A stretch of 62,352 nucleotides of DNA, filler included, from Hausera hauseri (GCA_046269625.1; 9 parts of 9 records of this genome joined end to end with filler, not necessarily neighbours in it); one strand, 5' to 3'. Shown: positions 3,850 to 57,126, numbered from the whole stretch's first letter. The notes: generated by a model not told the origin, from the sequence alone. Translations and numbers: made by a program.

Positions 3850-5250
3850 GTAACAAATTCGTCGGGTAAAATTTTATGTTAACAATTTAATAGATTCACT
3901 AATATATGCATAACAGAAGTATGACAAATTGACTGACCTTTTTTGACGCTATTCTTTAAATTTCCGATGATTTCTTTTTGTTTCAATGATTGCTGTTGTC
4001 GATAACTGATAAAGTAAAATTTGACATAATAACGCATGGTAAATGATGTGCAATTCTGGGGAATCGCTGGTACCTTTGTAGACAATTTGAACAGGTTTTG
4101 TTAGGTGTAGATTCTCGAGATATGGATGTATCAATGAGAATATATCACAAAATAATTGAATGTTCAAAATGTTCAATGTCACTAATTGTTCATAAATAAG
4201 GAATCTCGTGTAAAAGTGACTGTTGCAAACTGTGTCCACCATACTGTTCTCGCATGGTACGAAACTCTGGAACAACAGTTGGAATAAAGTATTTAGCTGA
4301 CTCATTGTTAGGCAGTTTTCACTAGCGAATTGAAATAATTTGCTGGCGACCTGTTATTTGACATCGGTGTCGGACATGAGTAACAGCGAACACGTCAAAC
4401 TGATTTCTTCGTCAGATAAACTCTTAACATCTTCCGCAGATGAGTCTTAGATACTGTTGCCGAGTATCGAGTCTTGATCCATGGACATGGATAAATCTCC
4501 GTTATGGGTATTGTCTAATTTAAGGATAGCCTTAATAAAGTCCGTGCAGAACACAATTGGATTGATGCTGGTTATGGCCATGATTTTAAATACTGCATTG
4601 AATACATTACCGAATCTATCGCTAGGTAACTCATTCGACTGTTCGATAATCATTTTCAGAATCAATGGAGGATGACTAATCATGCATGTGTCATCATATT
4701 CTTCTAAAAATTGTTCTTGTACGACACTTCCAATACCCGCAATCGCTGTAAATACATGTCCAATTCATCTTGCCATGCGATTAACTTCGCTGGAGAATTG
4801 CAATGCTCATCGGCTGTAACCTTCGCAATCCATTGCTTTATTACCTGGATTGTGTAAATCTTCTGTTGGGCTATTACAATATTTTGAGGAATGCTTTCAT
4901 AATATCAATGAACGTATTTATTACGACGATCTGATCAAGAATAGTCATGACAGACTGTGCAGTACTCTTAAACCACGTTAAACAATAATTGTACATATAC
5001 CCGTAGAAAATCAATTGTTTGGACTTATTTGGGAAGTCACAGTCATAGATATAATAGGAAATTAGACTTCTGACTGTTTTTCCTCTAATTATATCCTTAG
5101 TAAGTACGTTCTTTTGAACGTATTTTAGCTTATTCAGCAAGTTGTATATATTGAACCATGTTAAGACATTCGACGGAGTCATTTCTTGGATTAAAATGGG
5201 GATTGAATCGTCGATTAATAGAGATTGAAACGGCAAACGCTTTGAAACCA
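3850..5250 (-). pseudogene. Degraded fragments of unidentified helical (possibly HEAT-like) host protein gene(s)
   Basis: Consecutive co-oriented minus-strand ORF pieces (3949-4305, 4447-4683, 4874-5251) with protein-like composition, broken by stops; family not recognised. Confidence 0.35.
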
Positions 5251-6471
5251 AACAGCGCTTATCAAATGTATTTTCTCCCGAGTTGAAAAATTGCCCGATT
5301 TGCGAACTTGTTCTAAATCTTTACTGCTCAACTGTTTACCGCACTCTAAACACATAAAATATTTAATTACTTCCCAAAATACAAGATTAAATAGATCTTT
5401 TACTCGAGCCGGTTCCGGTGCACTCATTCGTTTAGCTTGTGGACCAGCATTTACCAAAGGCTCATCCTGACCATCATTTCTCAAATCCAAATGGGAAACA
5501 TGTGACGACGACTTAAATCCTGGATATGAATCATGTTCAATGACCTGAGTTTTATGATCTAATTTTCGATGGAGTTCAAAATCCGTTATATTGATAAATT
5601 GCAATATACAGCCGGTACAATGTTTGAACACGAGTTCTTTGTGAGTCTTCAAATGCTGGAAAAACAATCCGGTCTGACCGGCATTCGACATGGAACCCGG
5701 TGCATCAAGAACGTTCATTGGCAGAGCATCATTAATCGTATAGAGCCGTAAACAATACGGACAAATCAGTTCGTTCGTGTCACTATGGACTTTTTTGAAA
5801 TGTCCGATAACATCCTGGTAAAGTGACGTGTGGAAATTGCATATTGCACAACGGTACGGCATTTCATGTTCTCGATGAGAATTTTGCAAATGATACGCCA
5901 GTGCAAAATTACTGTCGCACTGTTTCTCACAAATCCGACAAGAAATCGTACAGATTATATTGCCGTTGTTTGTGTCGATATACACACGCTGTTCTCCATC
6001 GGGACCCATAACGGACATGTGTTCGGCTTCCATGTGATTGCGCAATTCGAATGCGTTATCTAACATTTTGCCGCACGTTTGACATTGGATAATGTCACAG
6101 ATTTTGAACATTTTCATGGATCTGTCGTCGATGTGCTGCAAAATGTGTTCAATTGTCGACACATTCGAGTAGCAAATCGTTTGACATGCGGCGCAACTAA
6201 ATCGATATTCGCCTTTGTTTTGTTGGGTCATGTAACGACCTTCAATTCGACCGTAATAGAAGTCATATAACGGTGTTAATTGGGTTGTCAGTATAAAACA
6301 ATTTGAATCATCCTCTTTTCCATCTTTAGCACATTTTTGAACCATTATTCCTTGTTCAGTGGATATGATTTCAAAACCCCACTTCTGACACCAATTCATA
6401 TTGACGAGATAAATCCAACACGAATTTTGCATTAAATCGTGATTAAACGAGAGTAAATGACTGTTACACAA
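5215..6471 (-). CDS. POGZ/ZNF280-family C2H2 zinc-finger protein fragment (intronless, ends probably chimeric)
   Basis: DFYYG...FSCAAC...HILQH, CRICE...HLQNSH..HEMPYRCAICNF.TS.YQDVIGHFKKVH..TNELICPYCL, matching the POGZ/ZNF280 finger cluster. Confidence 0.75.
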   Translation of the reverse strand: MCNSHLLSFNHDLMQNSCWIYLVNMNWCQKWGFEIISTEQGIMVQKCAKDGKEDDSNCFILTTQLTPLYDFYYGRIEGRYMTQQNKGEYRFSCAACQTICYSNVSTIEHILQHIDDRSMKMFKICDIIQCQTCGKMLDNAFELRNHMEAEHMSVMGPDGEQRVYIDTNNGNIICTISCRICEKQCDSNFALAYHLQNSHREHEMPYRCAICNFHTSLYQDVIGHFKKVHSDTNELICPYCLRLYTINDALPMNVLDAPGSMSNAGQTGLFFQHLKTHKELVFKHCTGCILQFINITDFELHRKLDHKTQVIEHDSYPGFKSSSHVSHLDLRNDGQDEPLVNAGPQAKRMSAPEPARVKDLFNLVFWEVIKYFMCLECGKQLSSKDLEQVRKSGNFSTREKIHLISAVWFQSVCRFNLY

Positions 6472-7810
6472 ATATGATTTAATCCACGTAACAAAGAAAA
6501 AACAGAAAACTTTAATTCCCTTTTATAAACAAACCGATCAATTAATTATTGGTAACTACAAACCACAGAAATCTACAACATTAATACACACAATATCTCC
6601 AAAAATGTCCTCATAGAAAGTCGATTAACTTCATATTTGCCGAATTAGTTCACCAGTACCACTATACTCATCGGACATAATTGTGTACTCAAACCGAACA
6701 TTATTATTCCTTCGTGTAACTGTGTCGATGATATCGGTGAAATCGCGTTTTGTCAGCCAAAACATCGTCATTGTTACCTGAACAAAATTTGCAGGTTTCG
6801 CTGACTGACTTCTGATACCGTTTCTTAGCATCAACATATGTCTGTGAACTGGTAGTATTTATCAAACGTGGAATAAAACTGATTTCGATTTTCTTTAACA
6901 AAAATGAGATTTCACATTCAGCATTCCGTTTGTTGGATGTCCGTAGTTATTCCGGGTTGTTGGACTGTGGTGGCATCCGAGTCCCTGGCACCACACCCAC
7001 CATTACCGCTACTTGCAAATTATTGTTATCGAAGGCGGCAAAATTAACCAAATAATAAGTAAATAAAATCCACTGTTGTATAAAATAAACCAATATTACA
7101 AAATAAAGTCAACTATGTCAACCAGACCAATTACGCAATTACCTATCACATTATCAAAGTTAATTAAAATAGGTTTGTGTAACACATTTCGAGTTTAAAT
7201 TATTCAGAATCATACAACGGTGAATTACAGATTACTGAACTTTATAAAATAGCCAAGTTTAAATTCCTTTAAAACTTCATTTTGAAACTGGAGTTTATTG
7301 ATCAAACTCTTAAAATGTCCTACAGCATCAATTCACTTAAATATTTTACCTTAAAGGTACAAAAAATATCCGTACAGTGAAACCTGCCTAAGTTTTACAT
7401 GGATTGTTCCATAAATTTTCTAAAGGTTAGGTAGGTGTAAAACTTATAAAGTTTCATGGGTAATTATGTATGAACAGGACTCCATGACATTTTACAATTC
7501 TATTGTAGGTGTGCGGTACAAAAATAGCAAAATATGCCCATATATGTAGCCATTAGGCCATTTTTCAACATTAACAAATTAACACCGTGTCCTCAGTTGC
7601 CCATTTTATTATGCCATAATTGACAATTTTTCTGCTACATACATAGGTTGGTTATTGAGAGACATCTTTAAATTTCCCCACCTGCTGTCCGCTTTGTGCT
7701 CTCCGCATTCGTTTAAATTTAAATTTACTTTAAAAATCCATATTTGATTAGACAACTGATATTCACATACAATTTGTTTGTTGGATTTATTGATTAGGTT
7801 TATTAGCTGT

Positions 7811-7910: not shown

Positions 7911-8396
7911 GGTATCATTTCCGCTCCAAATAAATTGACAGGAACAAATCTCGCAAATGGAATTACAGACAATAAATTTCAAAACACCTCATCGAAGGGT
8001 ATATGCAGGCCAAAGGAAATTGAGGCTTTTAGACAATTCCTTGCCTTTCGACGACAACGAACAAATGAGCTAAATCGAGCTATGGCTTCTGTAGTAGATG
8101 ATACGCGATAAAAGGCTCAACGGGAATCTTTACTCGGCGTAAACCATTATCAACAAGTAACAACCCAAATATTTTACAAAATTTGGGGAAGATTTCTGAT
8201 ATTCGGACAATCTGCATCCGGATTCTTAGCGATATATTTCCTGATACAGATGATTAAAGCAGTCATCCAAGCAGTAATTAATGAATACAAAATATTTACA
8301 TTAACTGGATTTTCTAGCAAGATACTGACTGCGATTATAACGCCTTTTGGAAAATTCTTAAGGCATACGAAGAGAATAGATGGAAATCAGACGTAG
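7911..8396 (+). pseudogene. Chuvirus-like (class III, gB-type) envelope glycoprotein, C-terminal membrane-proximal and TM region
   Basis: Manual translation from 7911: ...KGICRPKEIEAFRQFLAF...KIWGRFLIFGQSASGFLAIYFLIQMIKAVIQAVINEYKIFTLTGFSSKILTAII; fits the GIY...W..F..FG..SAG...K....I.GY.L....G.S..L.A pattern of chuviral G; one internal stop. Confidence 0.7.
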
Positions 8397-9029
8397 AACG
8401 TCACGTCGGATATCATAACCGTAAACGAAGAAGAATACCTATATTTTTGCGTAAGCGGAAATCTATAAAGCATATTACACGAAGAAATAATTCGGATGAT
8501 AACGAGCCTAAGGGAGGAGAAGTACCTACAGTAATAAATAGATATAAGGCGTATTCTGTTATTAAAGCACTACTGCCTATGTTACTTCCTACCGCTCCAA
8601 GTTATGAAGATTGTAACAAACGATCAATAAGTTCGTATCAAACGGAAATCTATAAAAGAACAATTAATGTAGAAGATTCTTATGAAGGAACGAAACGTTA
8701 CGGGATCCGACGGAAAATGTGTTATCGACAATCCACAGATGGTCCAAAGATGTTGTATTCTCCCAGAGAACCTTGGAACATAGAAACTAGATCAACGGTT
8801 TGGGATAATCCAAGGTTAAAAACTTTCCAGAATAATGAATTACACACTAATAATTGAGAACCATTAATTAGTACACACGAAGCGGAAGAGTTGCACATAG
8901 AAAATAACGAATTATATCCAAACGAAGAACTAAGACAGCTATCGGCGAATATAGTATCCTTCCTCGTAATCCGAATCAATGGACTCAAAATATCGGCGAT
9001 AAAACGCTTGAAGGATACATCAAACTGTT

Positions 9030-12000
9030 TTGGAACAGTAATAGAAGGACGACCCTTTACCAAAATCATTATTGAGGATCGGGAAGTTTATGCTTAATTG
9101 ACACAGGATCGGAAATGTCTTACATTAAAAATGATTCAATACCTCAAACGCTGCGAGGACACTTATGCCCACCATCCGCGAAAGACCGACGAAGTACGGG
9201 AGCTTTTGTTCAAATGTCAAAACCAATGTTTAAGTGGAACCCAGAAGTTCAGAAATTGGACAATTTTTCCATAATGAGTTTGCAGTTATGGAGCAATTAA
9301 CCGACGACGCACTTCTAGGAAGGGATCTACTAAAAAGACTGTTAAACATAGCAATTGACTTACAAACACGGAGGCTAATAGAAATCAGGTTAAACGTAGA
9401 CGTGAAAAGCGCTAAGGATAGAAAATTTGGAGAAGTGCTAATACCAGTTGACGAAAACATTCCACCAAGAACAGAAATGATAATTTATGCCCAAATACAG
9501 CAAGATGACGATCAACCAGTATATTTTGAACCGAGAGATACGTTAGATCCGAATATATTACTCAGCGATGTATTAACGAGAGTACACTCCTGCTGAGTAC
9601 CAATCAGAATAGCTAATAACGCGCAAACTCCTGTCAAGCTCCATGCTTATACTACTTTAGTACACACGTATAAAGTATCGTCAATAACTATCGAAGAAAA
9701 ACCTTACAAGTATGCTGAATTTTTATCTCATGTCGAAACTAAATTTTCCACTGAGTCCTACTATCGATTTTACGAATTATTATGCCGATATAAATCGATT
9801 ATCGCCAAGAACGAAGAAGATATTGATAGAGTGAAAGCATTAAAACTGACTATTCCGCTCAATAAAAAGCCCTGTTCGAATGAAGAAATAGACTTGGAAG
9901 ACCAAAAGATGCCAAAATGGTATCCGCCGCCGCATTCATTAAGGTCAGAGATAACGAAAGAAATCGAACGAATGCTTAAGGCCGATGTAATTAGGCCCAG
10001 CTATAGATCCTGGTACTCACCAATCCTTATGGTTGAAAACAAAGGTACTACAAAACATCGATTTTGTATTGACTACAGAGCCTTATATAATCTTATTATG
10101 AAAGATTCCTTTCCACTACCGTCAGTGAAAGAGGCTTTAGACCGATTATCAGGAGCAAAATGGTTTACCACTCTGGACTTACAATCCGGATACTGGAAAG
10201 TGGAGATAGAGGACGAAGACCGCTATAAGACAGCATTTAAAACACGCGATGGTGTTTATGAGTTTAATGTCATGCCATTGGGTATTACTACCGGGCCAAC
10301 CATATTTACGAGAATGATGAACAAAATGTTAATTGGACTGGATCATGCTTTTGCTTATTTAGATGACGTGATGATAGCGTCATAAACCGGTGAGAAACAC
10401 TTAAAGGATATTGGACATACACTGATGAGGCTAGAACAAACCGGCTTGAAATTAAATCCAAAGAAATGCAAAAGGGCTTAAAATGCAGTATCCTACCTTG
10501 GCCATATAGTTGGAGAAGGAGGATCGATACCGGAAAAATTATTATTAAATAAAATATCAGATTGTATGGAACTACAAAACCAAAAAGAATTAAGGCGCTG
10601 GCTAGGATTATGCGGTTATTATGCAACCTATATGCCAGATAATTCAAGGATAAACGCATTTTTATATCGTCTACTTAAAAAAGGAATTAAATGGAAATGG
10701 ACAGACGTCAAACAGAAAGCTTTTGATGAGATGAAGCAGATATTAACAAGTGAACCTCTTTTATGATATCCAGATTTTAACTTACCTTTCATAATTAAGA
10801 CAGACGCCAGTAAAGAAGGCATAGGTTCTGAACTAGCATAGAAAAGAGAGGATGAAGAATTAGAGCATCCGATTGCTTATGGAGGACGTTCCTTGAAAAA
10901 GACCGAGAAGAACTATTCTGTTACCGAATTAGAAACTCTAGCCGTAAAAGAGGCACTTCGACACTTCAATGTTTATGCATATGGACAGAAAATTATAATT
11001 GTAACTGACCACAAGGCCGTTACGACCCTAAACGGCAGGGCAAATAACTCAACATGTAGACTTAACAGGTGGATTGAAGAAATCACCAGATATGATATTG
11101 AATTCCAGTATAAGCCAGGGAATAAACATGTAGACGATGATGCATTATCGAGATTAAAGACCAAAACCAGTGCAATTACTGTAATGAAGAGAAGCCAACT
11201 GGAAGAGATAATAGATCATCAACGCGCTTTGACAATGGATAAAGCAATTAAAATTTCGACAGAACAGAGAAGGGATAAAGTCATCCAATAGATTATAGAA
11301 TTTGTTAAAAAGGATGTCATACCAAAAGGACGACAGTTAAAGAAACATTTACACAGACACGGACATAAATATTGCATCTTAAATGACAAGAGCAGTGAAG
11401 ATATTTTATATTACGAATGGAAAGGAAAGAAACTGATAGTTATTCCAAAAGGTTTACGAACCGAAGTACTGATGTACGAACATGATTCATATTTGGCCGG
11501 ACACATGTCTTGGAAGAAAACGCTGGAAAGAATAATGAATAAATACTCTTGGCCTAGTATCTATATTGATTTGAAAAATTGGGTGAATGCTTGTGAAGTA
11601 TGTGCAACTAAACAAAAGAAGACGAAAAATTACATGGCCAAACTAAAACCAATTGATGTACCCGACAGGCCCATGCAAGCCATTTTGATGGACATCGTAG
11701 GACCTCTTCCTACGACTCACAAGAACAATAAATATATTTTGACGTGTATTGATCGACTAACTCATTTTGTCGAGTTGATAGCATTAATTGATCAAAAGGC
11801 AGAAACCCTGGCAGAAACCGTAGTAAGGAGAATTATTTGCCGATACGGACTTCTGACCAGATACTCACGACCGAGGAAGGAATTTCACAGGCGAACTATT
11901 CGAGAAGATCACTAAGATATTCGAAATTGAGCGGTTGACAACTACCGCATGTCGCCCTCAGTACAATAAAATGGTCGAACGGATGAATGCGACCGTTATA

Positions 12001-12530
12001 CGCATATTATCAACAGTAGTAGCAAAGGATCAAAAATATTAAAACTAATTTTCAGAAGGAACTCAGTTTGCTATTAATACCACTCCACACCCGGCAACAG
12101 GATACATACCATTTTTATAATGTATGGACGTGAAGCCGTGTTACCTACGGACTAAGGAATGACGCCATACACGGTCAATCCCAAAGATTTAGAACGAAAT
12201 TTTGCAGAAGTACTACAGATGCGACTGCAAAAGTGTTAGGAAATAGCCAAGGAATTATCCCAAGACTATCAAAAACAGTTTAAAAAACAGTATGACAAGA
12301 AAGCAAAACCGCATGATTTAGAACAATGCAATAGGGTTTATGTACATTACCCAGTAGCCAGAAAAGGCACCTCATTAATATTAACGCGTACAGGCAGAGC
12401 ACCGTACGAAGTTACCACAGTTACGCCAACCACAGTATATATCAGTAAAAATGGAAATGAAGAAGTCATACCGGTACAAAGAGTTGTTAGGACAGAGATA
12501 CGGTCCAATAAACGTTACAGCCTACGACAA
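9030..12530 (+). pseudogene. Ty3/Gypsy pol (aspartic protease, RT, RNase H, integrase), with multiple stops and frameshifts
   Basis: (L)IDTGSEMS and LLGRD; RFCIDYRAL, LDLQSGYW, MPLG, YLDD; KTDAS, NYSVTELE, TDHK; H-x6-H...C-x2-C, MDIVGPLP, IDRLT; C-terminal GRAPY and RYSLRQR. Confidence 0.95.
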
Positions 12531-12559
12531 CGCGAGGTAAAAACGTCCTCAATAGTTGC

Positions 12560-13974
12560 CAGACCAATATCGTACATTCAGATAGTTTTAGCATTATCAT
12601 TAATTGCTTTTTATATTTCGAGAACACAAACTCAATGGTGGTACGATGAATTTACGCTAGGAGATATATACGGAATTCGGAAAAGTGGAATAAAAACGAG
12701 GAACAAACCAGAAAAGGAGGATTAACCCCGAATTAAATTCAAAAACAGGAAGACAATAGGAAGACTACTACAATCTATGGCATTCCATTACTACTCACCA
12801 AACTCCATATGTGTTGAATTTAAGGTCTGGAAACCATTCCGTGATTTCGGGAGATTTCAAATTGTCTTAGACGATGTAACAACAAAAGAAGCAAAGAATT
12901 ATGATTTTGAACCTGGAGGTTACACGCAATGCTGCGACATAGATTTTCGACACACTTATAACGTCACCTATCGCCTGTACTTACCGGACTCATCCGACGT
13001 TTATATTGAAACAAAACCGCAATTTCAGTTGTTTATTCCTGCATGGAACAGACATCATGGGATAAAACCCGACGAAATTCTGCGATCCACCGACCCATAT
13101 ATCCAGCTATTAGACGAAAATATCCAGAAAATTTCTGTAAACAAGGCAAAACAATGCATTCAAGTAGACGCCCGAACAGAGCTAACTGTTAGCCGAGAAA
13201 TTAGTATCACCTTCGAAGCGACAATTGGACCAACTCCGAAGATAGAATATTGTTCTATACGCGTAGATGTACAGCACCCCTATTGCAAACTGCCCGTGAA
13301 CCAAAAGTTCAAAATAAAATTTGACTTATACGAAGTACGACTTAACAAACCAAGTATACAGCTACGAACTTACTATCCAGAAAATAGAATAATGGAAATT
13401 TCAGCGGGAACCACGACCAGAGTCGACCATTAAAGTTAATTTAACTACCCTAACCGTTACAGCGAGCAACATACATATAGCAGAGTTGGAAAGCACACCT
13501 ATCAAATATTCGGCGCACCGGTATAAAATCGTGTTCTTTGTGGAAAAGAAACAAAATTACGATATACACATAAGTTATCGAACAACATATAATAATCAAA
13601 TTGTAACACTATTTAAAAATACTTATCAAACAGAATGAAACTTACTAAAACCACAATCTGAATACATAGTACAAGTGCATGCAGAGAACAAGCAAAAAAG
13701 AAAAATTACATTACGCACCTTAGACGAAATTCATACAGAACCGCACTTATATGCAGATGAAAACAACGAAAACACAATTTTATCTACTACCCAAGCACCG
13801 TTAGAATTAACCGTCTTACCGATTGTATCTATTGTTGCACTATCAACATTTCTTCTCATTATGTTAATTGCGATTTTTCGATTAGCTGCCCAAAACCATT
13901 ATTCCAAGCGTCCTAAAAATTCAGAATGGGAATTAAGGGAATTGGAAAATCCTATAGACCCTATGATAAAATAA
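12560..13974 (+). pseudogene. Type I membrane protein with fibronectin type III-like ectodomain, in frame with integrase
   Basis: Hydrophobic signal YIQIVLALSLIAFYISRTQT right after IN; SPNSICVEF...DIDFRHTYNVTY; canonical FN3 motif LKPQSEYIVQVHAEN (about 13642-13690); TM LPIVSIVALSTFLLIMLIAIF and a short tail. Confidence 0.7.
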
Positions 13975-14019
13975 CCTGACAGTTACAGATCAGGTTATTC
14001 TGTCATCAAACAAAGAATT

Positions 14020-14077
14020 TGTTTTGGTTTAAAACCATCCTTTGTTTTAAGATTAACCTTCATGTTTTTTTGTTCAG
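14020..14077 (+). promoter_or_regulatory. Putative splice acceptor (branch point + polypyrimidine tract + CAG) ahead of the accessory ORF
   Basis: gattaacc...catgtttttttgttcag: a T-rich island in an otherwise A-rich sense strand, followed by a long coding-like frame. Confidence 0.5.
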
Positions 14078-14729
14078 ATTGGTAAGTAATCAAACCCAGT
14101 TGAACCCAAGCCGACTTAAAATCGACACCGAAGAAACTACGAGCTGATTTAGAATCGACACCGAAAACGCTACAAGTCGACTTAGCATCGACGAATTTTT
14201 ACAGAAATATGTGACAGTACGGATCCCAAATTCAAAAGCCGCCTATAGGCAAATCAATACTGAATTACAAGGGAAGAACTTTGTTCAATACGGAAAAGTT
14301 AATGAAATCGCAAACGGTTTGAAAGGAATGAGCGAGGAGGCCAGAGCAGTATACTAGTATGCATGGATGTAGGACAAAGATGCTAGGGCATACCCTTTCA
14401 AACAAATCACTCAATATCAAACGGATAAAGAACAAAAAATATACCTACACGTGGCCGACGGAGAAATTTATTATAGACTAAAAGATCAGAAATGATACTG
14501 TTCACAAGAAAGGCAAAGCCGGTTTAGCACCTTCGTATTTGGCAGTAGGAGCTTCCACGATTACGAGCTAAAATTTCGCGTAGCCGCCTTACCAGTAAAA
14601 TTGATGATCGAAACAACGGAAGAAGAAGTAATACCTACCTCATTGCTACCCTTAGAGTTTAGACAAAGGCCCACGAAAGACGAATATGGCACACATCTAC
14701 ATTCGTTTAGATTGGTAGCCGATGAAAGA

Positions 14730-15250
14730 AACTTCAGGATTGTTGCAAAAACTATGGAGAAGGAGAAGAAAGAAATTATATTCCGATCGAAATATCCATT
14801 CAAGAAGAAAATGTGGCCGAGGTCTATTCGAAAATCATTAACCCGTAAAAGAAAGTGCTAGAAACTTATGCGGAAGTTACCGGGATTAAAAGTGAACAAT
14901 TGAATCATGGAAAGGATTCCAAGTTAGTACAACAAGAAGTAGCACAATGCTTCTATGGATACATCTTAGTGGGATATCAGATAGAGAGGATTATGAAGAA
15001 ATTAGCCATACCGGTAACGTATATAGCCGGAGTGAAAGAGAGATAGAAACCCACCCGACTATTATTAAACAAATGGGAATTAAGGCTAAAGAAAAATGGG
15101 CCATCTACCACTGTCCGTGGAAGGCCGTTTTAAGTTAATGGTAGAGGCCATGACCGGTGGAAATATAAAAATAAGCAGATTGCTCACTGCAAATCAAAGA
15201 TCCCAATATCTAAATGATATAAATGCTGGAATAAAGTGGGAACATGAATG
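14730..15250 (+). pseudogene. REX4/ISG20-like DEDDh 3'-5' exonuclease domain, catalytic residues apparently substituted
   Basis: IEISIQEENVAEVYSKIINP*KKVLETYAEVTGIKSEQLNHGKDSKLVQQEVAQCFYGYILVGYQIERIMKKL aligns by eye to REXO4-type ARVSIVN...VYDKYVKP...T.VSGI.PE.L..G.....VQKEVA..LKG.ILVGH.L.NDL..L. Confidence 0.75.
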
Positions 15251-16199
15251 GATTTCCAGCAACCCCGGGAAAAACCTACGAAATTTCCCCAAACCCGAAG
15301 GACTCAGCACACGATATCGTAAACATTTCGGACCATAATCTCCACCCAGGAATGTCGAAATTAAACCAATATGAAACTAGCAAATAATTATACAAGGATT
15401 GAAAACGGAGAAAATGGAGAATAAAACACGTACAGATAAAAACCCAGCATAAGTTATGGCGCCACCGCAGATAATAATCTATTTAAGATACCAGAAATTC
15501 CTCGGAAATACATAGAAGAAAAACATAGAAATTCAGAGACCGAAACCGGAAAAACAACTAAAAGGAAAACCTCCTTTTTCGATTACCTATTCAAGAAAAG
15601 AAGTAAAGAAGGAGAGAAAAGATTAAAGGAAGGACACAGGCTAGACAGAAAAGATTCAAAACCAACACGACTAGATAAACCAAGACAACCCGCGGAAAAA
15701 CTCTCAAAAATAGACATACAATCCCGCGTTGAAAAGTTCACGAGAAACCCAAGAAACCGGAAGAACAGATAACAGAAATAAACGTTCTACGGAAGAAGAC
15801 ATCCACAGAAGATGTGCACTACGCCACTACGGCAGACTACCCCAGGATGCTATTAGCCACAGAATATTACAGCAAACAGAAGATTAAAGAGGCAATGTTT
15901 TTTGTCAAACTAATGCCTGCCAGACAAGTTTACAAGAACACTTATGTCTGGGAAAATCCTAAGATTGGAAAATACGTTGCTCCGATATTTCAGTCCATGT
16001 GGATAAATCAGTTAAGCTACTACTAAAGAAACAGTACCAAAAATGCCGGTCGACTGGTAAAGTTCCCTATTTAGATCCAGATACTATCAGCAATTAGACC
16101 CTAATAGCCGTTGGATGCGACCCTAAAAAAAGCTCGATAAAGCGAAAGCAAAAAAGAATCTATGCCTACCTATACCAAGATGAGGAAGGCTTGATAGTA

Positions 16200-16526
16200 G
16201 AGCCTATTGAGATTATGTTAAGAGTGGATCTAGATGACGAAAATTGGGTGAGAGAGGAGAACGAATGTCCCGTATGTGAGGCAAATCTGAAACAAGGATA
16301 TGTAGTGTTAAATAACCCAGACTGCCGACATAAATATTGCAGAGACTGCCTAGAGAAATAAACGTTGGATAATGGAAAGACCACATGTCTAGAGTGCCGA
16401 GCTGAAGCTGCCGACCTAAAGTACTACTCAAACGGTAGCTATACCAGAATAGTTAAAATTAAGCCGTACCACAGTTTTAAATTAGAGACGAATACCAGAG
16501 AAAGCCAGCCTAGTACCAGTTCTTGA
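16200..16526 (+). pseudogene. C3HC4 RING-finger domain at the end of the accessory ORF
   Basis: CPVC-x14-CRHKYCRDCLEK*-x7-CLECR (16266-16400); the conserved Trp codon is replaced by TAA, so the ORF track misses it. Confidence 0.85.
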
Positions 16527-16617
16527 CCCAGTCTGAGAACACGCATGGACATGTTGCGTTTGCCTCGCCCTCGCGGCACCTCTCCTGACGCAATGGGGAC
16601 ATCCGAAGATGCCGTTC

Positions 16618-16629
16618 AGGGAGGAGAAG
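16618..16629 (+). other. Polypurine tract (PPT)
   Basis: agggaggagaag immediately before the TGTTACA LTR start. Confidence 0.85.
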
Positions 16630-16999
16630 TGTTACAAATGGTAGATACAATTGATAACGCCGTGAATAAGAAACGCGAACATTGTAAATAATTTATTAGA
16701 ATACCAACATTATAAATAATTTAGTGGAATAGAACTGTATCGTACCACTAGGATATATATATTATTTATGAATGAATAGACTAAAATTTTATTTGTATAG
16801 AATAGTGATAGAAAGAAACGAATGGCGTATAGTTGAAAATAAGAATTAATAATAAATAATGTATAGAATGGAGAAAATAATAGAGTGCGAATTAATAGTT
16901 TATGACGTACCAGACTATATAAAGAAGGCAGTTTGAAAATGAAGACAGAACTTACAACAGCGATTTGGTCGAGTTGAAGGATCAATTTGAATTGTTACA
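16630..16999 (+). repeat. 3' LTR (about 370 bp)
   Basis: Starts TGTTACAAAT after the PPT and ends ATTGTTACA (imperfect inverted termini); TATATAAA at about 16916. Confidence 0.75.
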
Positions 17000-17037
17000 G
17001 ACAGATATTGACTCATTGTGTTATTCTTGGAAACTGT

Positions 17038-17529: not shown

Positions 17530-20500
17530 TTATTTCAACTGCAAATGTCCGTACGCCTAACTCTTATTCCGCTCCACCCACTTACGCTTATCATCATTAC
17601 ATGATAAATCGATTTTTGTATTAGTTACAGTATACAGCTGGTGTTCAATTGATCGGATAATCGTTTGAGACACAACCATTGATTGCCCTCCTTGTCGTTA
17701 TCCATATTCTTCTGCTCCTCCATCATAGCATGTAATAATCACCCTGGTTTATTTCCATCTGGGTCAGCTGAACTTCTTTCGCGCACATTTTTGGTCCACA
17801 GTCCGTCAGAAGACTGTAACACTGGACGCAGAAATATGCATTCCCGATACTGAACCCGACCTTTGCTTTCATCCTTGATTCAGCCAATTGTGTTTGTGAT
17901 AACGTTGCTGTACAACGGATGATTCTGTGATTAGTTGGACGTGTCCAGTAATCCGTCTTCCATTATTTGCCGCAGTAGTTTCTCGCAATTGACGTTTTAA
18001 GTTTGAGGAAGAAACTGTCACTGTCACCGGCAGTTATATTGATCATGCAGCCGTCAAACATTTGCCGCTATCGTGCCAAGTAACAATACTGCAGCTCACA
18101 TCCGTAGTTTGCTCAGATCCAATAGTACCTGTCCTATATAACTTGGCCAGTCCAGTACGACATCTTTTTTGTTTAAAAGTACGGCAACCAATCTATCGGG
18201 AATGTGCGTTGATCGCCTGAACTGAGCCTTGCTGGTGTACGTAACCAGCCGCTTTTTACTTTTTCATAGGCGCATATTGAGCCACTTTTTGAGATTCGCT
18301 ACTGTTTTTCCTTAGAGAGAATTGTTTTTCAGCTTGTAGTAGTCCTTTTCAAACTTGTTGCAAGCTGCAGCTCGTTTTGCCGAATTTCGAATGATGTATT
18401 ATTTGAATATCTGAGCCTGTGAGAATAGAATTGCGCGATGCAATTGTGTGACATGTACACCAAGCTGCATGTAAATTCATAATAGACGCCAACGAATAAT
18501 GTAATTTTTCTTCGGTTCATGCGTCATAAGCAGCTTCTTCACCTTTGACCCGGGTGGACATTGGTAGTTCATCTATGACTGAAAGTTCATCCAGAAAGTC
18601 AAGCAACTCATCTGGTATCATGAGGTCGACTTCCATTAGGTATCCAACTGAGCTGTTTTCTGCCGTGTCTGCTCTCGGCAGATCTTCCAGTATTTAGTCC
18701 AGATCTTCCTTGTAAAATATCCATTCTAATGAACCATACGGCAAGGGTTGCGAAAGCGTCCTGCCCTACAGGTTATTAATGCCGATATACAGCAGTGATG
18801 TAGTATTATAATTGGCAGCAGCAGCAGCACTAACATGATGCATTTTGACAAACGTCATGCCGCCACGAATACCTTCATCAAACAGTAAGTACATTTCTCG
18901 ATTTTGCAACAGCTCAATATCACGATACAATGTCATCAGGGCTGACGCCCAACTCATTTTCGGTATGAAATAAAAGTTGAGTGGCTCCAATCTATCTTCT
19001 TGTAGCGCTTTTATCCGAAATGACTGAAACACATCGGCTAATAAGTATACGCCCGGTTTTAAATACTGAAGCATGTACTTTTAAGCATATGCTTCCAGTT
19101 TTAAGTACTGAAACAGGTTTCTACATCCGAACTATGACAAAAATCCATGTGTTTTCTGCCATTCATTTTCTGTTATACCGGACAAACGCGGTGGTAATTC
19201 TTCTGTCGTTTGAAGCTGCTCATATGATATCAAAAAGTCGTATGGAAATATGCCTTTGCTACGTGCAATATGTACAGGGAACTGTGTTCATGTTAAGGCA
19301 CATCCGGCAAAGCATTTACCAGCTTAGCCAATGATTCATTTAGAAATTGCAATGAATTAAGGAATCGTACCTGGAACCGATTAATACGTACATACAGTGA
19401 TAAGTATTTTTCCATCATAGTCGGAATTACGGATAGTTCCCAGTGCGCAAATCCGCTTATTGCCGATTTAAAAATATGATGACAATCATAACCCCTGAAT
19501 TTATGAAATACCACCGATAGGAAGGGCCGCACACGCCTTGTTAAAATGCATGAATTACATACGGCTCCGAGATATCGACTGGTAAAATGATCGTGATCCG
19601 GTACGAGCTGTTCCTGTGCATCGAACGGTAATATTTTGTGACACAGATAACATTTATTGATAGCTAAAAAAATCAGCTGTTCGCCTTCGTCTGTCCAGAC
19701 CTAGGGTATAGTACAATTATTGCGATACCACGGTGCGATTTTCGCTTCTACTATTGTTTCCAACTGCTGCAGAAAATCGTGAATACAGTTCCAACCATGA
19801 AACACGTAATACTGTGGTTGATCAGTGGCTTTTATTGGAACAACCAACATATCGACAGCGACTGGAACATGTTTTTGGTCATATGCATTGTGCCGTGGTA
19901 GAATAGCTTTGATATTTGCATATACCACATATGCCGGACTGTTTGTTTTTGACCAGTCACGGAATGTGAGTTCCTTTTTGACGGGCATGACGTACATTAT
20001 TGTTCCTGACGAGTTTTGTTTGCGCAACGTCACATATTTTCCCCTGCTGTGTCTGAACTCAAACCATGCAGACATATAGGACACTATTTACACTGTATAC
20101 GCTTTTTTATGAACAAGTCATGGCCCACGTTCAACAGTCTGTCTAAATTTGTCACGGCCACGTAATGGAATTTTTCCCCATCCTTTATCTCTAACAGTAT
20201 AAAATTTAATGAGCGTCCATTCGAGTTCTGACTTCTATAGATTACGTCCACATGAGGATTCTTTTAAATCTCTTCACCTGCCGGTATTTCTACGACTGTG
20301 TTGTACCGGAACACGTTAATTGACAGTGTCCGATTACGCCGTTCAAAAGTCGGAATGGTTTTCAATTTCATCGGCATCCAACATTCATCAACGTACAATT
20401 CGGAAAAATACTGCCGATACTGATTTGGACGATATGCACTATGCCTATCCACTTGGTCATATTTTAACACGGCCAGAATACTGTAAATGAAACAGTATTC

Positions 20501-26745: not shown

Positions 26746-29700
26746 CTTTGGATCACTGTACTTTTTCCATTTTTGGAATGCTGCTCTTAAATTCCTGCTA
26801 ACTCTTACTGCTATTTCATGTAATTTTTGTAATAAATACTGGTGGAATTCTTCACCTTGGTATCGGAGTCTTGGTTTCAATAGGTTGTCTATAGGCAGTT
26901 TTGGTTCTCTCCCAAACATCATTTCGTAAGGGGAAAATTTTCTGCTGCCGTTCTCCATGACTCTTATCACCATTGCAGCTTGACTCAGATACAGATCCCA
27001 TTCTTTCGGCTGGTCTTGTGTATACTTAGCGATAACATCATATATCGTTGAGTGTTGCCTTTCGTTAATCCCGTTTGCTCCCGGATTGTATACTGCTGTT
27101 CTTACATGTTTAAATTTCTTTCAACGTGTCCCGCATAGCTTTGTTGACAAATTCACGTCCATTGTCGGTAACGATTATTTTCGGGCATCCATATCGAGGG
27201 ATGAACTTTTTTAGCAAGATGTCTACTGTGTTCTCTGTGGACTTATCTGGGACAGCATATAGTTCAGGCCATCCGCTGTACACGTCTACTATGTGCAGCA
27301 TGTGTTTGTTTCCTGATGCAGTTAGGGGGTGCGGTCCGGAAAGATCCAAACTTATCTTCTCGATAGGGTAATTCACGTATCCGGTTCTTGTATCGGGTGT
27401 TTTAGCACCTCCATATTCCGTAGTTTGCACATTTCACATTTCTTTACATAGTTCCCAATTTCCAGCAACATATTTTTCCAGTAATACTTTCTACTTATCA
27501 GTTCTGTAGTCCTGTCTCTGCCAAGATGTCCTAATTGGTCGTGATATTTCTGCAATACCATTTGCTTCATGCTTTGGGGTACACACAGCTGAAAATTTCT
27601 CTTCTCTTCTCCACCTACTCGATATAGTTCTCCATCATCTAATATGAATTTTTTCAACTTTTTCTGTGTTTCGGGTATTTCTGATTGTTAGCCTTCAATA
27701 ATGTGCTTTAATTCTTTGTCTTGCTGCTGTTCTGCCTTCATATCTATCTTGTTTTCTTCGGTCTCACTGTTGTCTGTTTCTAATTCTTGGGTTTCGTCGT
27801 GTTTCGTTTTTGCTGGATCAACCACTATTTGTAGCGTGTGATCATCTATTTCCGCTGTGCCTTCTTCTGTCTCTTCTCTCTGGTTGTCTTCCTCATTGTG
27901 TTTGTCTGGTATTCATGACAACAAATCGGCAATTGTGTTCTCAGGGCCTGGAATATATTCAATATTCATATTGTACCCTTGCAAATGTATGATCCACGGC
28001 TGTATCCTTTTGTTCTGAATATCTGCTCGTATCATCGCCTTCAGTGGCATATGATCGGTTTTGATTGTAAATTTGCTATTATGTAAATAGAAATTCAATT
28101 TTTGTAATGCATAATGGATTGCATAGGCTTCTTTTTCAGTCACTGACCATTTCCTTTGCGATTTAGTCAGCCTATGGGATAAAAAGTAGATCGGCTTCTC
28201 CTTGGATATTTCTTTGCCTTTAACGATCTCCTTGCCATCTTCTTGAGCTAATACCGCTCCTATCGCATATTCCGACGCATCCATATATAGCACGTATTCT
28301 TTGTTGACTTTTGGGTACGTTAGTAATGGTACTACAGTTAGACTCTCCTTCAGGTATTCAAATGCCTTTTGACAGCTTTCGTCCCACCGAAATCTTGCGA
28401 ATTTTCTCGTTAGTGCAACTAACGGTTCCGCTATTACTGAGAAATTTGGTATAAACCTTCGGTAATAATCGCATGTTCCTAAGAATCCTCGGACCTCTTT
28501 TGTGGTTTTTGGGGCTGTCATCGATCTTATCGCTACTACTTTTTCCTTGTCTGGCTGTATGCTCTGTCTAGTGATCATAAATCCAAGGTATTTAGTTTCT
28601 TCCTTTAGAAATTCAAACTTGCTTAATTTCAATTTCACTTTATGTTCATGCAACCTGTCAAACACTTTCTCCACATGTTCGAGATGGTTCTCAATGTCTC
28701 CTTTCATGAAGATCAGGATATCGTCGATGTATGTGAGTGCATATTGTTGCATGCCTTCTAATACTATGTTCATTAAAGACATGTAGGTAGCCGGGGATCC
28801 TTTTAATCCAAATGGCATAACATTCCATGCATACAATCCAGTATGCGTGCAGAACGCTCTCTTTGCCTTCGCATCTGGCGACATTTGGATACACCAGAAT
28901 CCTGATCTCGCGTCTAGCGTTGTAAAATAGGTGGTCCCGTCTAGCACTCCTAGAATATCGTCGATTAGTGGCATGGGGTAGCTCACGTTTGCCGTAATAG
29001 CGTTCAGTGCCCTGTAGTCGACGCAGAACCTATGACTTCCGTTTTTCTTCGAAACTATTACTATTAGAGATGACCATTCCGACCGGGTTCTTTCAATTAT
29101 TCCAGCTTGTAACATGTCCTCTATCGCTTTTTCTACAATTTCCCAGTTCCCGAGTGGTGTTCGGTACGGTTTCAAACTAATCGACGGGTGGTCGCCCGTC
29201 TCGATTTTCATTGTAACTGTCTGAGTTCGTCCTAGTTCCATGTCGGACAGCGCAAATACATCGGGGTGTTTGCTGACAAATTTCTCTATTCTTTCTTTGT
29301 ATGCTGGGTCTACTTTTATCGTCTCAAGTAATTTCCTTGTTCTTTCGTTGTCCTGTGTCACTTCTGCTATTACCTTGCCTTGTTTATTTCTCCAAAGTCC
29401 CTCTCGTATTTCTTTTAGTACATTGTCTCTATGTAGTCTTGTCTGCTGTCTCTCTTCCGCTTCTATACTTAATCGTATTTCTGGTTTCCTTTCTCTTTGG
29501 TTTTTTCTCTCACTGTTGAAGATTGCTTCACATTTCATTACTTGTGGTTTTTCTACTTTCGCTACACTGCAGCCTTTTTGTAATGTAATCGTTTTTCCTG
29601 TGTGGTTCGCCACTATCACCGGTATTTCTCGTCTAGTGCTGTTATTGTTATGCTCTCCCCTTCTTGCCAGTATTGGTTCTTCTTCATTACAGCTATCACT

Positions 29701-31358
29701 ATGTTGATCGAGTTCGGTCTCATGGTGATCTTTTGTTTCACCCGTATAATTGAGGCGATGTGGATATCATCTTCTAAGTCCACATATTCGTCTTCTGCCC
29801 TTATTTTCTTTAAGTCGAAGTAGATGCGGGCCTTGTTTTTTCTCAAAAAATCCCTTCCTATGATAGCACTTCTGCACATATTTCTGATCACTGGGAAGTT
29901 GTGTTTCATCGTTTTATTTCCGATCTTAAATTCTAGCTGGGTTTTTCCTAACACCTTTAACGCACTCCCCGATACTGATCTCAGGTCGATATCTTGTCTC
30001 ACCAATCTGCTTGGTCTTTTCAGCATTTTGTAGACCCTTTTGCTGATGATACTTACTTGGGCTCCTGTGTCAATTAGGCATCTTACCCTGACTTTCCCGA
30101 AGTAGATTATGCATGAGCTCGGATCTTCTGTATAATTTATTTCATATCTTCTTTTCAGTTTTTCTCTTCCTTGGTTGTTTCTACAGTCTCTGCTTTTGTT
30201 CGTTGCTTCGGTCTGTGTTCGTAGTTGTTTCCTTTCATTCGTTGTTGTTCCATTCGTTGTTTGGGCCAGGGTCGTTGTTCTTTGGGTTTTGGTGTATGGT
30301 TGTTAATTTCCTTCTTATAATTGGGAATGGGTGGGACTTGACTTTGGAGTTTGTTTTCTGTTTCTTCCTTGGTGTGTTTCCTGTTTCTGGTTTCATCAAT
30401 TTCCATTGGTTCTAGTTCTTGTCTTTTGCGTTCGTCGTTGCTTCTGTTTCTATGATATTGTATATTTTTGTTTGTTGTTCCCCTTCTGTTTTGACAGCGT
30501 CGTTGCCTCGTACTTACTGATATTTGCTTTCTCTTTTCATCCTCGCAGTATCTTTGTCTCGGTTCTCTAGGTACTTGGTAGGGACATGTTGCTTCTTGGA
30601 TTCAAGTTTCTTTTCGTCCTTTCATATTTTCTACTGTTCGTTTCTTGGTATGTTCTGTACTTATCTCTGTTCATAAATTCTCTCTTGTTATCTCTTCTCG
30701 GGGTTGCCATTCTATAATTTCCTTCTTTTGGTTCTCTTCGTCTCATAATTCTGGTTTCGTATCTGTCTGTTTTCATCTGTGTTGGTCTAATAGCTTCGTT
30801 TCTGATTCCCCTTGGCTTTTTCCTTTGACTATAGTACTCTGTGTTATGCTGACGAGCCCTTTCTCTTTGCCTATTCTGTATGGGGTTTGCTCTACTTCGA
30901 ACTTCTTGCTTCGCTCTCTTATTTATACCGTTGATTGCTTCCTTCGGCTCCCTACTTCGCCAGAAGCTCAGATCAAAGTGGGGTTGCCGTTTCCCTGCTG
31001 TGTCTGATTTCTAACTTCTCTTGTCTCATTTGTGTTGCTCGGCCTGCAAACTCTCGCAAGGTGACCTTCTTTGCCAAATTTGTAACAATTTTTATTATTT
31101 CCCGTCTTCGGTCCAGTATTATTCGACTTTGCTGTTTTGCTTCTGCATTCTCTTGCTATGTGCCCTATTTTCCCACAACTGAAACACTGTGTTCTCTTCT
31201 CAACTTCTTGAACTAACTTTCTGTCTTCAGATCTCTTTTCTCTGTGTCATTCATGTTCTAGTGTTCTTCTGTGCCATCTCAGACGGTACTGATCCACTTC
31301 CATCTGTTCTTCACTTCTGTCGTCGTACTTTTCTTTACCTAGTCTCATATTTACTCTT
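26746..31358 (-). mobile_element. Ty3/Gypsy retrotransposon internal region (low-complexity gag-side region, PR, RT, RNase H, IN), mildly degraded
   Basis: CLIDTGAQVS (about 30052-30084), RFCVDYRAL, MPFGL, YIDD, DASEYAIG, TEKEAYA, TDH, HDQLGH...CEMC, DLSGP, TDNGREF. Confidence 0.95.
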
Positions 31359-40345: not shown

Positions 40346-40369
40346 CCCCTCAAAAGTGCGGCCTTTGTT

Positions 40370-41140
40370 ACTCGGAATTTCTGGATTGCTATCATGACAT
40401 CTCTAGGCTTAATTTCACCGCGATAGTTCATGACAATCGATATGAATTTCCCTTTATTTGAGCCGGTTTTAGTCATTTGGTGATCTTTCGAGGAGACACC
40501 TTTTATAATCTCTTCGATCGATGGACTGGCATACTTAAATCGTGTTTGGTGCAGAATTGGAGAATGACTCATTATTTTGTGGTGTATCTTTGGGTACGAT
40601 ATTGAATTTTTATGTATTTCTTTCAAACCAGTATTCATCGTTGTTTCAAATTGCGCTGATGTTGTAGATGAGCTAATCGTTATAGATGTTATTCGATTGA
40701 GATTAGGATAATATGGTGAATTCATGAACAATAGATATTTACAAACATCATAAAGAGCTTCATTATCAAAAAGTATAGACAAATCACACGTATCTAGTGT
40801 TGTATGACTATGGAATACGCTATTCTATAGCTCAACAATCGCAGTAGACATTATCAGGCTGGGAAATAATTCCAATTGTATTCGGTTTGTTTTGGGGTAA
40901 TCAATGGCTAATTGCTGCATTATCAACGCAGCAACTCTAGACCCGTACCACCACCCATACTGTTAATGACGATAAATGCATCCAAATTATTCGTCATTTC
41001 AGCTAGTTTAAATAGTCGCGGTCGAAACAATCTTACCAGTCGTACACCAGGATTGAGGCTTCCTCGCGCAAAATTGTTACCTGGATCTTCACAGTTAGTA
41101 ATCATTGATTCTCTGCTAAAAATATTTCGATATGCTCCAG
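40370..41140 (-). pseudogene. tuba: Divergent alpha-tubulin fragment, frameshifted
   Basis: EDPGNNFARG, SMGGGTG, FDNEALYDVC, YPNLNR, YPKIH, YRGEI.P.DV. Confidence 0.85.
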
Positions 41141-44556: not shown

Positions 44557-44637
44557 ATTTCCTCAGAATAAATCTGTGAGAAAAACTTCAAACATTACCT
44601 AGTGCTTACGTTCTGACTGAAAACTTATCTGAATACA

Positions 44638-54370: not shown

Positions 54371-54597
54371 GGGGGTTGAAGGGGGGGTTCGTGTGAGGGT
54401 GTGTCTTGGTGATGTTGGTGCTTGATTAGTGTGCATGGCTTAAGCTCAATTATATTTGCATTTTTAGGTTTAACATCAATTTTATTAGCATTTCTAACTA
54501 TCTGTGTTACTTCTGGGCTCCCGCTAGAGGTGAGGTGGTTCCTGTCCGGTGGTTGTTCATCTTCACGTGTTCCTGGTCTTTTGTTATGGGGCAGTAG

Positions 54598-55755: not shown

Positions 55756-56208
55756 GCTTGTATTTGTACTCGAGTTATGAGACAGTGTTGATATTCTAAA
55801 ATAGTCAGTTAGTTAATTGTAATCACGATTTGTGGTCAGTATGATCAGTTATAATGTAGTCTTGAGTGGGTCAGAGAACTTGCAGTTGTTTGGTCAGTTA
55901 CAATAAAAACCTCACATGCGTCTGAGACACAGTTGTCTGGGTTCCTCCTCGAGGAAAATTACACAGTAACACTAAGTATGGTCGGTTACAAAATAAAATT
56001 ATAATAAGTCTGAAACTTACAGTTTGTGTGAGTTCCTCTTCAAGATAACACTTCCCACATGGGACACTTGAATGGTTGCCAGATGGCGTCCGTGGAGGTA
56101 GTAATTATCGGAAATAAGTAGTTAAATTCCAGTTGACTTGCGAGCTGTCTGCTTTGTGCGCGCCATTTCAGTTAGATCACACTACCGAGCAACACGCGTA
56201 TAAATGGG

Positions 56209-56650: not shown

Positions 56651-57126
56651 AGATCACCGAGCCCTCACAATTGAATGTTTTATGTTTATACAGCAGGGGT
56701 ATGCAGATTGTTTATGTGTGTGCCTTGTTCTATCTTTCGTCGTCACTGCGACTACTTTCTCTGTCTTACTTGCCCGAGGATCAAGATTTGTGCAGTAGAC
56801 GAAATGATTGTTTTGTCTTCTTTATACAATATATTCGAGGAGATTGTTTTGTTTATGAGATGAAAGAAATTCCTATTGGAAATAAACGCAAAGTAATTCA
56901 AGGAATTCTAAATAAACAAGGAAAGACATTGGCAAATGATAATTATGTCTGTATTAATTGTAGTTGTTACGATTTGTTAGTCATCATTACATAGATGTTG
57001 GATTTCACATTGAAACGAGATTCTGACAAACCCCTTTATCTTCAATTGGCCATCAATCATCTTCTTTTCTACGCATCGTTCAGTAAGGTATACCAGTTAT
57101 GAATTCGGTCATCTGTCATCATTTCC

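Follow-up and report, generated by a model that had tools for sequence, protein, structure and literature searches.

A decayed Ty3/gypsy element of Hausera hauseri with a fusogen tail ahead of pol and a candidate accessory block behind integrase

Elements of the Ty3/gypsy group (Metaviridae) propagate through an RNA driven by a long terminal repeat (LTR), capsid assembly, reverse transcription primed at a polypurine tract (PPT), and integration. The errantiviruses are generally treated as simple three-gene elements, in which one envelope protein carries out both binding and fusion. Here, we describe a decayed Ty3/gypsy element of Hausera hauseri (GCA_046269625.1). It occupies positions 7911-17037 of a stretch of 62,352 nucleotides, filler included, composed of nine short contigs joined by N spacers and hereafter called the window. 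It carries the end of a glycoprotein B (gB)-type fusogen before pol and about 4.1 kb of additional coding sequence between the integrase and the 3' PPT.

Several described systems share parts of this layout; they are cited here from the accessible portions of the articles concerned. Ty3/gypsy elements of the GAG-ENV-POL type, with an envelope of the herpes simplex virus gB type, occur in Nematoda, Bryozoa, and Platyhelminthes (Chary and Hayashi, PMC13524379). In that work, env had to lie at most about 2 kb ahead of pol, and the region examined behind pol extended for 3 kb; eight of the nine rows of flatworm elements list no LTR. In planarians, Burro, which belongs with GYPSM1 to the giant gypsy elements of more than 30 kb, carries an env that is placed between gag and pol, in frame, and harbors RING-type, BIR, MATH, and BCL2 domains (Arkhipova and Yushenova, 2019, PMC6431247). 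Because Ty3/gypsy elements with env before pol are thus already published, in flatworms, bryozoans, nematodes, and planarian Burro, the "new class" claimed by an earlier reading made from the sequence alone (the sequence-only reading) is overstated.

The best explanation of the locus, to which we give a probability of about 0.6, is a decayed copy of a multi-copy Ty3/gypsy element having a gB-type fusogen before pol and, likely as its own, a 3' accessory block that would serve attachment and counter-defence. We first describe the fusogen, pol, and the terminal signals, then the 3' block and the copies that bear on its membership.

Fusogen, pol, and terminal signals

The element fills an entire contig of 9,127 nucleotides (7911-17037), flanked by two N spacers. 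The plus strand is A-rich across the whole contig and all parts lie on it, in agreement with the one strand and single stretch of the sequence-only reading; coordinates below refer to the plus strand (+) unless marked (-). The order is a gB-type fusogen tail, protease, reverse transcriptase, RNase H, and integrase (PR-RT-RH-IN), a type I membrane protein, a DnaQ/DEDDh-like piece, a RING-HC finger, the PPT, and the start of an LTR. The 5' LTR, the primer binding site, and gag fall outside the recovered sequence and are not seen because the contig starts inside the env coding region. Premature stops and frame switches in env, pol, and the membrane protein gene bear out the description of this copy as decayed. 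For domain searches, frames were translated with X at stops and then compared with Pfam.

The class III (gB/chuvirus-type) fusion glycoprotein, correctly placed upstream of pol by the sequence-only reading, is represented by its C-terminal quarter (7911..8396). This part matches PF24664 (Monjiviricetes_fusion) with E = 5.5e-18 and 64.7 bits, for a cutoff of 27, over profile positions 468-614 of 653. It contains a transmembrane (TM) helix at ~8223-8279 according to hydropathy, is truncated by the contig start, and has one in-frame stop and a frame switch near its end. A linker follows up to the protease (8397..9075). It is open over 0.99 of its length (shuffle maximum 0.69), with one stop in about 260 codons and no zinc knuckle, and it matches no family in Pfam or NCBIfam; the words PTAP (8588-8599) and YPxnL-like (8915) are, we assume, late-domain-like. 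The env profile match lies about 650 nt before the protease, whose DTG motif is found about 700 nt after env, within the distance of about 2 kb used for GAG-ENV-POL gB-type errantiviruses. The linker between env and pol is open, with frame switches at both of its ends in this copy. Other copies vary in length at the env/linker break. These copies are contigs of one public run, X1, which holds 0.38 of the window's words; the run is perhaps related to the source of the window, and weight was put on its diverged copies.

The linker contains a PPT that the sequence-only reading did not report (8510..8522, the 13-mer being at 8511-8523), identical to the 3' PPT. The shared 13-mer has two exact matches on the contig (8511 and 16618), where 0.01 was expected and none of 100 shuffles gave such a result. 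This internal PPT could serve as a central primer of the plus strand, date from a time when env was the final gene, or mark where short derivatives end. With z = -0.5 and -0.9, folding at the two PPT segments is no better than in shuffles. An LTR remnant was considered for the sequence behind the internal PPT and rejected, as it has an open frame and no similarity to the 3' LTR.

A perfect second PPT right behind env also raises the idea of a composite locus, in which the env tail and its PPT (7911-8522) would end one element and the part from pol to the LTR would form a second, env-less element, with the fibronectin type III (FN3)-like membrane protein gene behind integrase (ORF3) as its sole env-like gene. 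In the same direction, 113 contigs of run X1 are found at 8501 and loose ends at 8479-8480, many sharing only the stretch up to this PPT, and no firm env-linker bridge is present among the matches listed. However, the interval from the PPT to the protease holds neither an LTR nor gag; its frame is open and lacks a zinc knuckle, unlike in the gag-pol element of a neighboring contig. Moreover, diverged copies cover the linker (a record at 8593-8917, joints at 8515-8618 and 8538-8642), and flatworm elements have been published with the order env-linker-PR, as far as they are described in the accessible text (PMC13524379, PMC6431247). A composite locus is therefore an improbable reading, and we retain a single element with its fusogen before pol.

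The pol region has the PR-RT-RH-IN order of Ty3/gypsy elements, as the sequence-only reading had stated. The aspartic protease (9043..9345), broken by frame switches, is identified by eye from a DTG motif at ~9100 in the translation; the piece matches no Pfam family. The spacer between PR and RT (9410..9680) is possibly a degenerate dUTPase-like region, although it matches no dUTPase family in Pfam, NCBIfam, or PHROGs. Burro has a dUTPase-like spacer at the same position (PMC6431247). The reverse transcriptase (YLDD) and RNase H (10038..11093) contain several premature stops and match RVT_1 (E = 1.9e-31) and RT_RNaseH_2 (E = 1.2e-31). In pairwise comparison with the PDB, they are closest to Ty3 (E = 5e-75), before CaMV (1e-55) and MLV-type enzymes (1e-28). 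The integrase (11442..12545), with its H2C2, core, and C-terminal parts, has stops and frame switches and matches Integrase_H2C2 (E = 1.3e-16) and rve (E = 6e-4). The Pfam families of Ty3/gypsy type PF17917, PF17919, and PF17921 are also matched. The traits of Metaviridae present are thus the PR-RT-RH-IN order, an RT-RH nearest to Ty3, and a PPT followed by an LTR that starts with TG. Scans of IMG/VR with RT and env queries gave no match, and a JGI scan with RT gave one unrelated fragment (39%).

The 3' PPT (16618..16629) contains the second exact match of the 13-mer. It is followed by the AT-rich start of the 3' LTR (TG..., 16630..17037), with AATAAA at 16851 and a TATA-like box at 16916; the contig ends 408 nt past the PPT. 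The element had been described as bounded by a PPT and an LTR ending at 16999. The 3' PPT followed by TG is confirmed. The 5' boundary lies beyond the contig start, and an LTR end at 16999 finds no confirmation: the TATA-like box is at 16916, and one record of run X1 extends for a further 171 nt after the contig stops. A coiled-coil-like, coding-like stretch of 38 aa in the LTR (16923-17036) gave no meaningful match. As a weak observation, which does not speak for absence, copy cover falls directly after the PPT and comes down, past ~16735, to one or two run X1 records that match the LTR.

The coding block between integrase and the 3' PPT

The first gene of the block encodes a type I membrane protein of ~470 aa (12546..13974), with two stops and one frame switch in this copy. 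A signal peptide is followed by two Cys-bearing beta domains, a Thr-rich linker, a third FN3-like domain, a TM segment (~13810-13890), and a short tail. A search of 1.84 billion protein representatives with the ectodomain gave exactly one match, P0001 (E = 5e-31), an intact protein of 479 aa whose alignment, at 35-36% identity, extends over the full length from the signal peptide into the tail, and which matches the contig in tblastn with E = 2.7e-64. Signal peptide, Cys pattern, TM segment, and length are all kept in P0001 at 35% identity. Word-seeded protein searches found no match to the ectodomain among longer proteins, and P0001 used as a query returned itself alone. ESM Atlas gave no usable match for the ectodomain, a JGI scan with P0001 gave none, and a PDB sequence search matched neither the membrane protein nor P0001. 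The frame is open from integrase into the signal peptide in this copy (12240-12722); an in-frame fusion of the two proteins is nevertheless doubted because P0001 carries its own Met just ahead of the signal peptide.

The type I topology proposed by the sequence-only reading is supported by the signal peptide, the TM segment, and the full-length homologue; the FN3 assignment has moderate support, and the protein is likely, though not proven, to be FN3-like. Pfam fn3 (PF00041) matches it with E = 0.14 and 12.9 bits, for a cutoff of 25, and BLASTP detects no repeat shared by the two beta domains of the N-terminal part. A single-sequence model of P0001 (pLDDT 46) has three beta-rich blocks. With this low-confidence model, the top Foldseek rows are mostly tandem FN3 modules, at E = 1.8e-3 to 1e-2 and probabilities up to 0.95, none being below 0.001. 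VIA points to Ig/FN3 sandwiches with Z up to 6.5, and a two-row model also has two all-beta domains (pLDDT 52).

The Foldseek rows obtained with the same pLDDT-46 model include FN3 modules of the cytokine-receptor type (gp130, IL-4R, IL-2R-gamma) and of LAR. Such similarities suit another reading of the same element, in which the 3' block is captured host-like cargo without a role in entry, acting as a decoy, in superinfection block, or in survival, or simply riding along. Burro and bdelloid elements do carry varied captured ORFs for which no function is shown in the accessible texts (PMC6431247, PMC5408684). Moreover, gB would need no partner, because most gB-type errantiviruses are described with three ORFs only (PMC13524379). 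Conversely, the whole type I topology and the Cys pattern are kept at 35% identity in a second lineage, and the block is fully adapted to the codon bias of the element; both points speak against passive cargo but leave room for a function other than entry. We consider cargo the weaker reading, with odds well short of even, and keep an accessory block for attachment and counter-defence as the preferred one.

Signals that the sequence-only reading did not report precede the second, 3' ORF. A stem-loop extends over and past the stop codon of the membrane protein gene (13963..14006; z = -3.26, 2 of 200 shuffles), and about 100 contigs of run X1 are found within it at 13982. It is followed, at 14055..14087, by a polypyrimidine tract with a CAG acceptor ending at 14077 and then a donor. 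On a simple splice score devised here, this acceptor has the top value among the 653 AG sites of the contig, and the only GTRAGT donor of the contig lies 4 nt after it. Such a succession of a hairpin, the best acceptor, and the sole GTRAGT donor therefore suggests a spliced RNA for the 3' ORF. The 4-nt spacing between acceptor and donor (14075-14087) might delimit a micro-exon; alternatively, the acceptor might serve trans-splicing, with an intron farther downstream.

From 14130 to 16690, open-frame cover is 0.74, compared with a shuffle maximum of 0.53 (0 of 300), and in other members of the family this part may form a single long ORF. It begins with a domain of ~190 aa (14178..14750), open except for three stops, that gave no meaningful match in Pfam, NCBIfam, the PDB, PHROGs, or a word-seeded protein search. 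Next comes a DEDDh/DnaQ-like (SDN1/ISG20-like) domain (14726..15338). Matches to DEDDh folds are concordant across four libraries (Pfam, NCBIfam, PHROGs, and the PDB), all under curated cutoffs: eight of nine NCBIfam rows are DnaQ/DEDD families (best E = 5.3e-5), and the best PDB match is SDN1 (E = 0.005), ISG20 being at E = 1. Motif I falls on a frame break, motif III is outside the alignment, and the C-terminal half was assigned by eye. At the position of the Exo II Asp, presumably a catalytic residue, this copy has Ile in the SDN1 and ISG20 alignments alike, and the catalytic D-E-D-D-H set is accordingly not found in it. The domain is likely inactive, as judged from its sequence. Of the "REX4/ISG20-like dead exonuclease" previously proposed, the DEDDh/DnaQ-like fold and the missing Exo II Asp of this copy hold; the narrower REX4/ISG20 label is only plausible. 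SUMO matches to the same piece were rejected, being two 10-bit fragments without the SUMO core where four libraries agree on DEDDh.

A Lys/Arg-rich low-complexity stretch and a 97-aa piece of no known family (15440..16026), with a codon bias like that of pol, lead to the RING-HC ORF (16020..16526). The finger itself (~16263-16397) has one stop inside, and its frame continues through the PPT. Its C3HC4 pattern and a PF00097 score above cutoff (22.4 bits, cutoff 21) confirm the RING-HC finger that had been proposed; in the PDB, it matches RING1 of HOIL-1 (E = 3e-4) and TRIM5 (E = 5e-4).

Diverged copies, possible mechanism, and other features of the window

Copies in run X1 bear on whether the block belongs to the element. 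The run contains 22,296 contig pieces on the element, 18,374 of them less than 95% alike, covering 30 of 30 bins, with 3,302 pieces on 13900-17037; the family is multi-copy, represented there by diverged copies. With a bar of at least 31 nt per side, the boundary between integrase and signal peptide is spanned by two diverged records with more than 31 nt on each side (12322-12641, with 64 differing letters and no gap, and 12380-12689). Further downstream, diverged records or joints bridge the acceptor region and the 3' ORF (14068-14175, side 40), the ~190-aa and nuclease-like domains (14743-14848, side 35), the nuclease-like domain and the basic stretch (15226-15568), and the basic stretch and the 97-aa piece (15301-15899, side 83; 15480-15905). 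The junction into the RING ORF (15937-16220) is matched by one record with 0 differences and therefore involves no misassembly. Indels coincide with frame switches of this copy at six of eight places among the matches listed, including the env/linker boundary, so these frame breaks are copy-specific; to judge from the aligned sequences, decay of this copy accounts for much of the fragmentation.

Codon usage gives a similar picture. The fraction of A-ending codons is 0.34-0.43 throughout the 3' ORFs, against 0.39 for pol and 0.27-0.30 for a pair of host-like genes, and the log-likelihood ratio of codon use favors pol over these two genes for all five 3' pieces. Composition agrees with one long-resident unit. 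Because diverged copies cover every ORF and bridge most 3' junctions, and because the codon bias of pol is shared, the extra ORFs probably belong to the element family, as the sequence-only reading had it, and are probably not a nested insertion. Quite likely, at least one branch of this family has carried the 3' block for a long time.

A further reading would attribute the extra genes to nested insertions or to unrelated repeats joined in a chimeric contig, and the assembly does consist of short contigs, with copies from a single run. Nevertheless, all parts share one strand and a uniform composition; target site duplications, LTR pairs, and inverted ends were sought inside 7911-17037 and none was found; and diverged copies are collinear over the junctions. 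We judge such an origin very unlikely, and continue with the single element.

Several observations do weigh against the preferred reading. The copies all derive from a single run of a single study, and among the matches listed, the longest of which has 640 nt, none reaches across the element or so much as a pair of complete genes. Among these matches, the env-linker joints have sides of 26-27 nt, under the bar of 31 nt, the linker-to-protease bridge is weak or missing, the joint between the membrane protein tail and the 3' ORF has a side of 30 nt, and no record joins RING to PPT. In addition, 43 contigs carry a different sequence ahead of 8479-8480. At the RING-PPT junction, 26 contigs do so ahead of 16573; part of the wider family therefore probably ends differently, and many elements with this PPT may lack the 3' block or differ in it. 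Codon bias cannot tell this pol from another gypsy pol. Finally, P0001 comes from a contig of 4,939 nt and its link to a retroelement is unproven, and both structure models are of low confidence (pLDDT 46 and 52).

Apart from these points, summed contig depth in run X1 peaks at 8480-8522 (~151,000), 13962-14056 (~35,000), and 16573-16629 (~15,000). The hairpin forms one of these peaks, and the other two stop at a PPT; depth is not copy number. The segments may be cis-signals common to many diverged relatives or to short non-autonomous derivatives ending at the internal PPT.

In herpesviruses and paramyxoviruses, fusion and attachment are split between glycoproteins, and herpesvirus gB needs partner glycoproteins. 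By analogy with Burro, gag would lie upstream in the present element, and env would probably run into PR-RT-RH-IN as one polyprotein. gB would fuse membranes. The FN3-like protein would be a separate product, with its own start as in P0001, exposed on particles or producer cells; tentatively, it might attach to the target cell and so allow fusion by gB. For the recognition of target cells by gB-type retrotransposon envelopes, a conserved second surface protein is a candidate gB partner. The spike and host-antagonist roles given in the sequence-only reading are putative. The 3' ORF would be made from a spliced RNA, a step given slightly better than even odds. The best solved relative of the nuclease-like fold, SDN1, is a small-RNA-degrading nuclease. 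A less probable step, offered as a conjecture, is that the likely dead DEDDh fold would bind RNA ends while the RING would ubiquitinate a silencing or restriction factor; the ORF is in this sense a candidate counter-defence encoded by a retroelement in invertebrates. More speculative still, and rather unlikely as a whole, would be an invertebrate lineage of complex enveloped retrovirus-like agents combining a gB fusogen, a separate triple-FN3 attachment protein, and a pseudo-nuclease-RING protein made from a spliced RNA that would bind small RNAs or RNA ends and eliminate host silencing factors, in which the internal PPT would let short gag-env derivatives ride along.

The remainder of the window contains other mobile elements. 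A decayed ordinary gag(CCHC)-PR-RT-RH-IN gypsy element (26746-31358, -), with an RT 32% identical to that of the present element, served as a layout control. Two copies of another gypsy family, ~86% alike, lie on different contigs (36807-39874 and 59856-62352) and have protease-like ORFs at 38236-38937 and 61026-61907. Labels given by eye point to an apparently intact LINE (51026-55812, -) with a 404-aa ORF1 and a 1137-aa endonuclease-RT ORF2, and to Polinton/Maverick-like DNA polymerase fragments (773-1540 and 18766-20087). Long intron-free host-like frames are found at 5215-6522 (-), 57103-58929 (+), 43021-44562 (-), and 40306-40824 (-). They include a C2H2 zinc-finger protein, a HEAT-repeat-like protein with one weak PDB match, presumably GCN1-like, a coiled-coil protein of repetitive sequence, and a tubulin-like piece that is decayed and was labeled by eye.

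Relationships with described elements

The combination and order of parts had been presented as without known precedent. The fusogen before pol is known (PMC13524379, PMC6431247); it is the combination in the 3' block that was not found. Indeed, our literature search, with Repbase, most subscription journals, and figures outside its scope, retrieved no gB element in which pol is followed by another membrane protein of several domains together with a pseudo-DEDDh/RING block. The main text of PMC13524379, in its accessible part, does not mention exonuclease, RING, or fibronectin.

Among accessory proteins of other LTR elements, sORF2 of the MDG1 group is likewise a transmembrane protein, serving soma-to-germline spread (Voichek et al., PMC11952523). 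However, it is described as a short FAST-like fusogen of env-less elements, whereas the protein found here has 470 aa and several domains and stands beside gB. Anakin also combines an LTR element with a chuvirus-type glycoprotein, but its pol is of the BEL/Pao type, its hosts are mosquitoes, and no second membrane protein is reported in the accessible text (Dezordi et al., 10.1101/2020.02.15.950899). Troyka was considered as a relative and rejected, since it is described with CG ends and no env (PMC12440569).

Like the present element, bdelloid Juno and Vesta carry an ORF with an exonuclease fold behind pol, and small TM ORFs are likewise found there (Rodriguez et al., 2017, PMC5408684). As described there, their ORF3 is DEDDy, GDSL, or TM, the DEDDy protein is RNase D-like with intact catalytic residues, and there is no true env. 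In contrast, the domain described here is DEDDh/DnaQ-like, lacks the Exo II Asp, and occurs alongside a gB env and a RING (compare PMC5408684).

Burro and GYPSM1 have an env before pol that is related to mononegavirus fusion glycoproteins, and RING-type (AIR1) and other host-modulating domains (PMC6431247). The position of the extra domains differs, as MATH, BIR, BCL2, ankyrin, and SUMO-like domains are in ORF1 or an upstream ORF in these elements and the extras are 3' of pol here; compared by description, the accessible text of PMC6431247 mentions neither an FN3 membrane protein nor a DEDDh domain for them.

With the GAG-ENV-POL errantiviruses, the present element shares a Ty3/gypsy pol, a gB-type env before pol, and a multi-copy state (PMC13524379). 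They are described with three ORFs, unlike the present element with its ~4 kb more coding sequence after integrase (PMC13524379). A prediction follows for the flatworm elements of this type for which no LTR was found within 3 kb of pol (eight of nine rows, PMC13524379): they would hide accessory blocks, the corresponding interval being about 4.1 kb here. The element of H. hauseri is best placed as a more complex variant of the GAG-ENV-POL errantiviruses; its 5' layout has precedents, and so has the notion of accessory domains.

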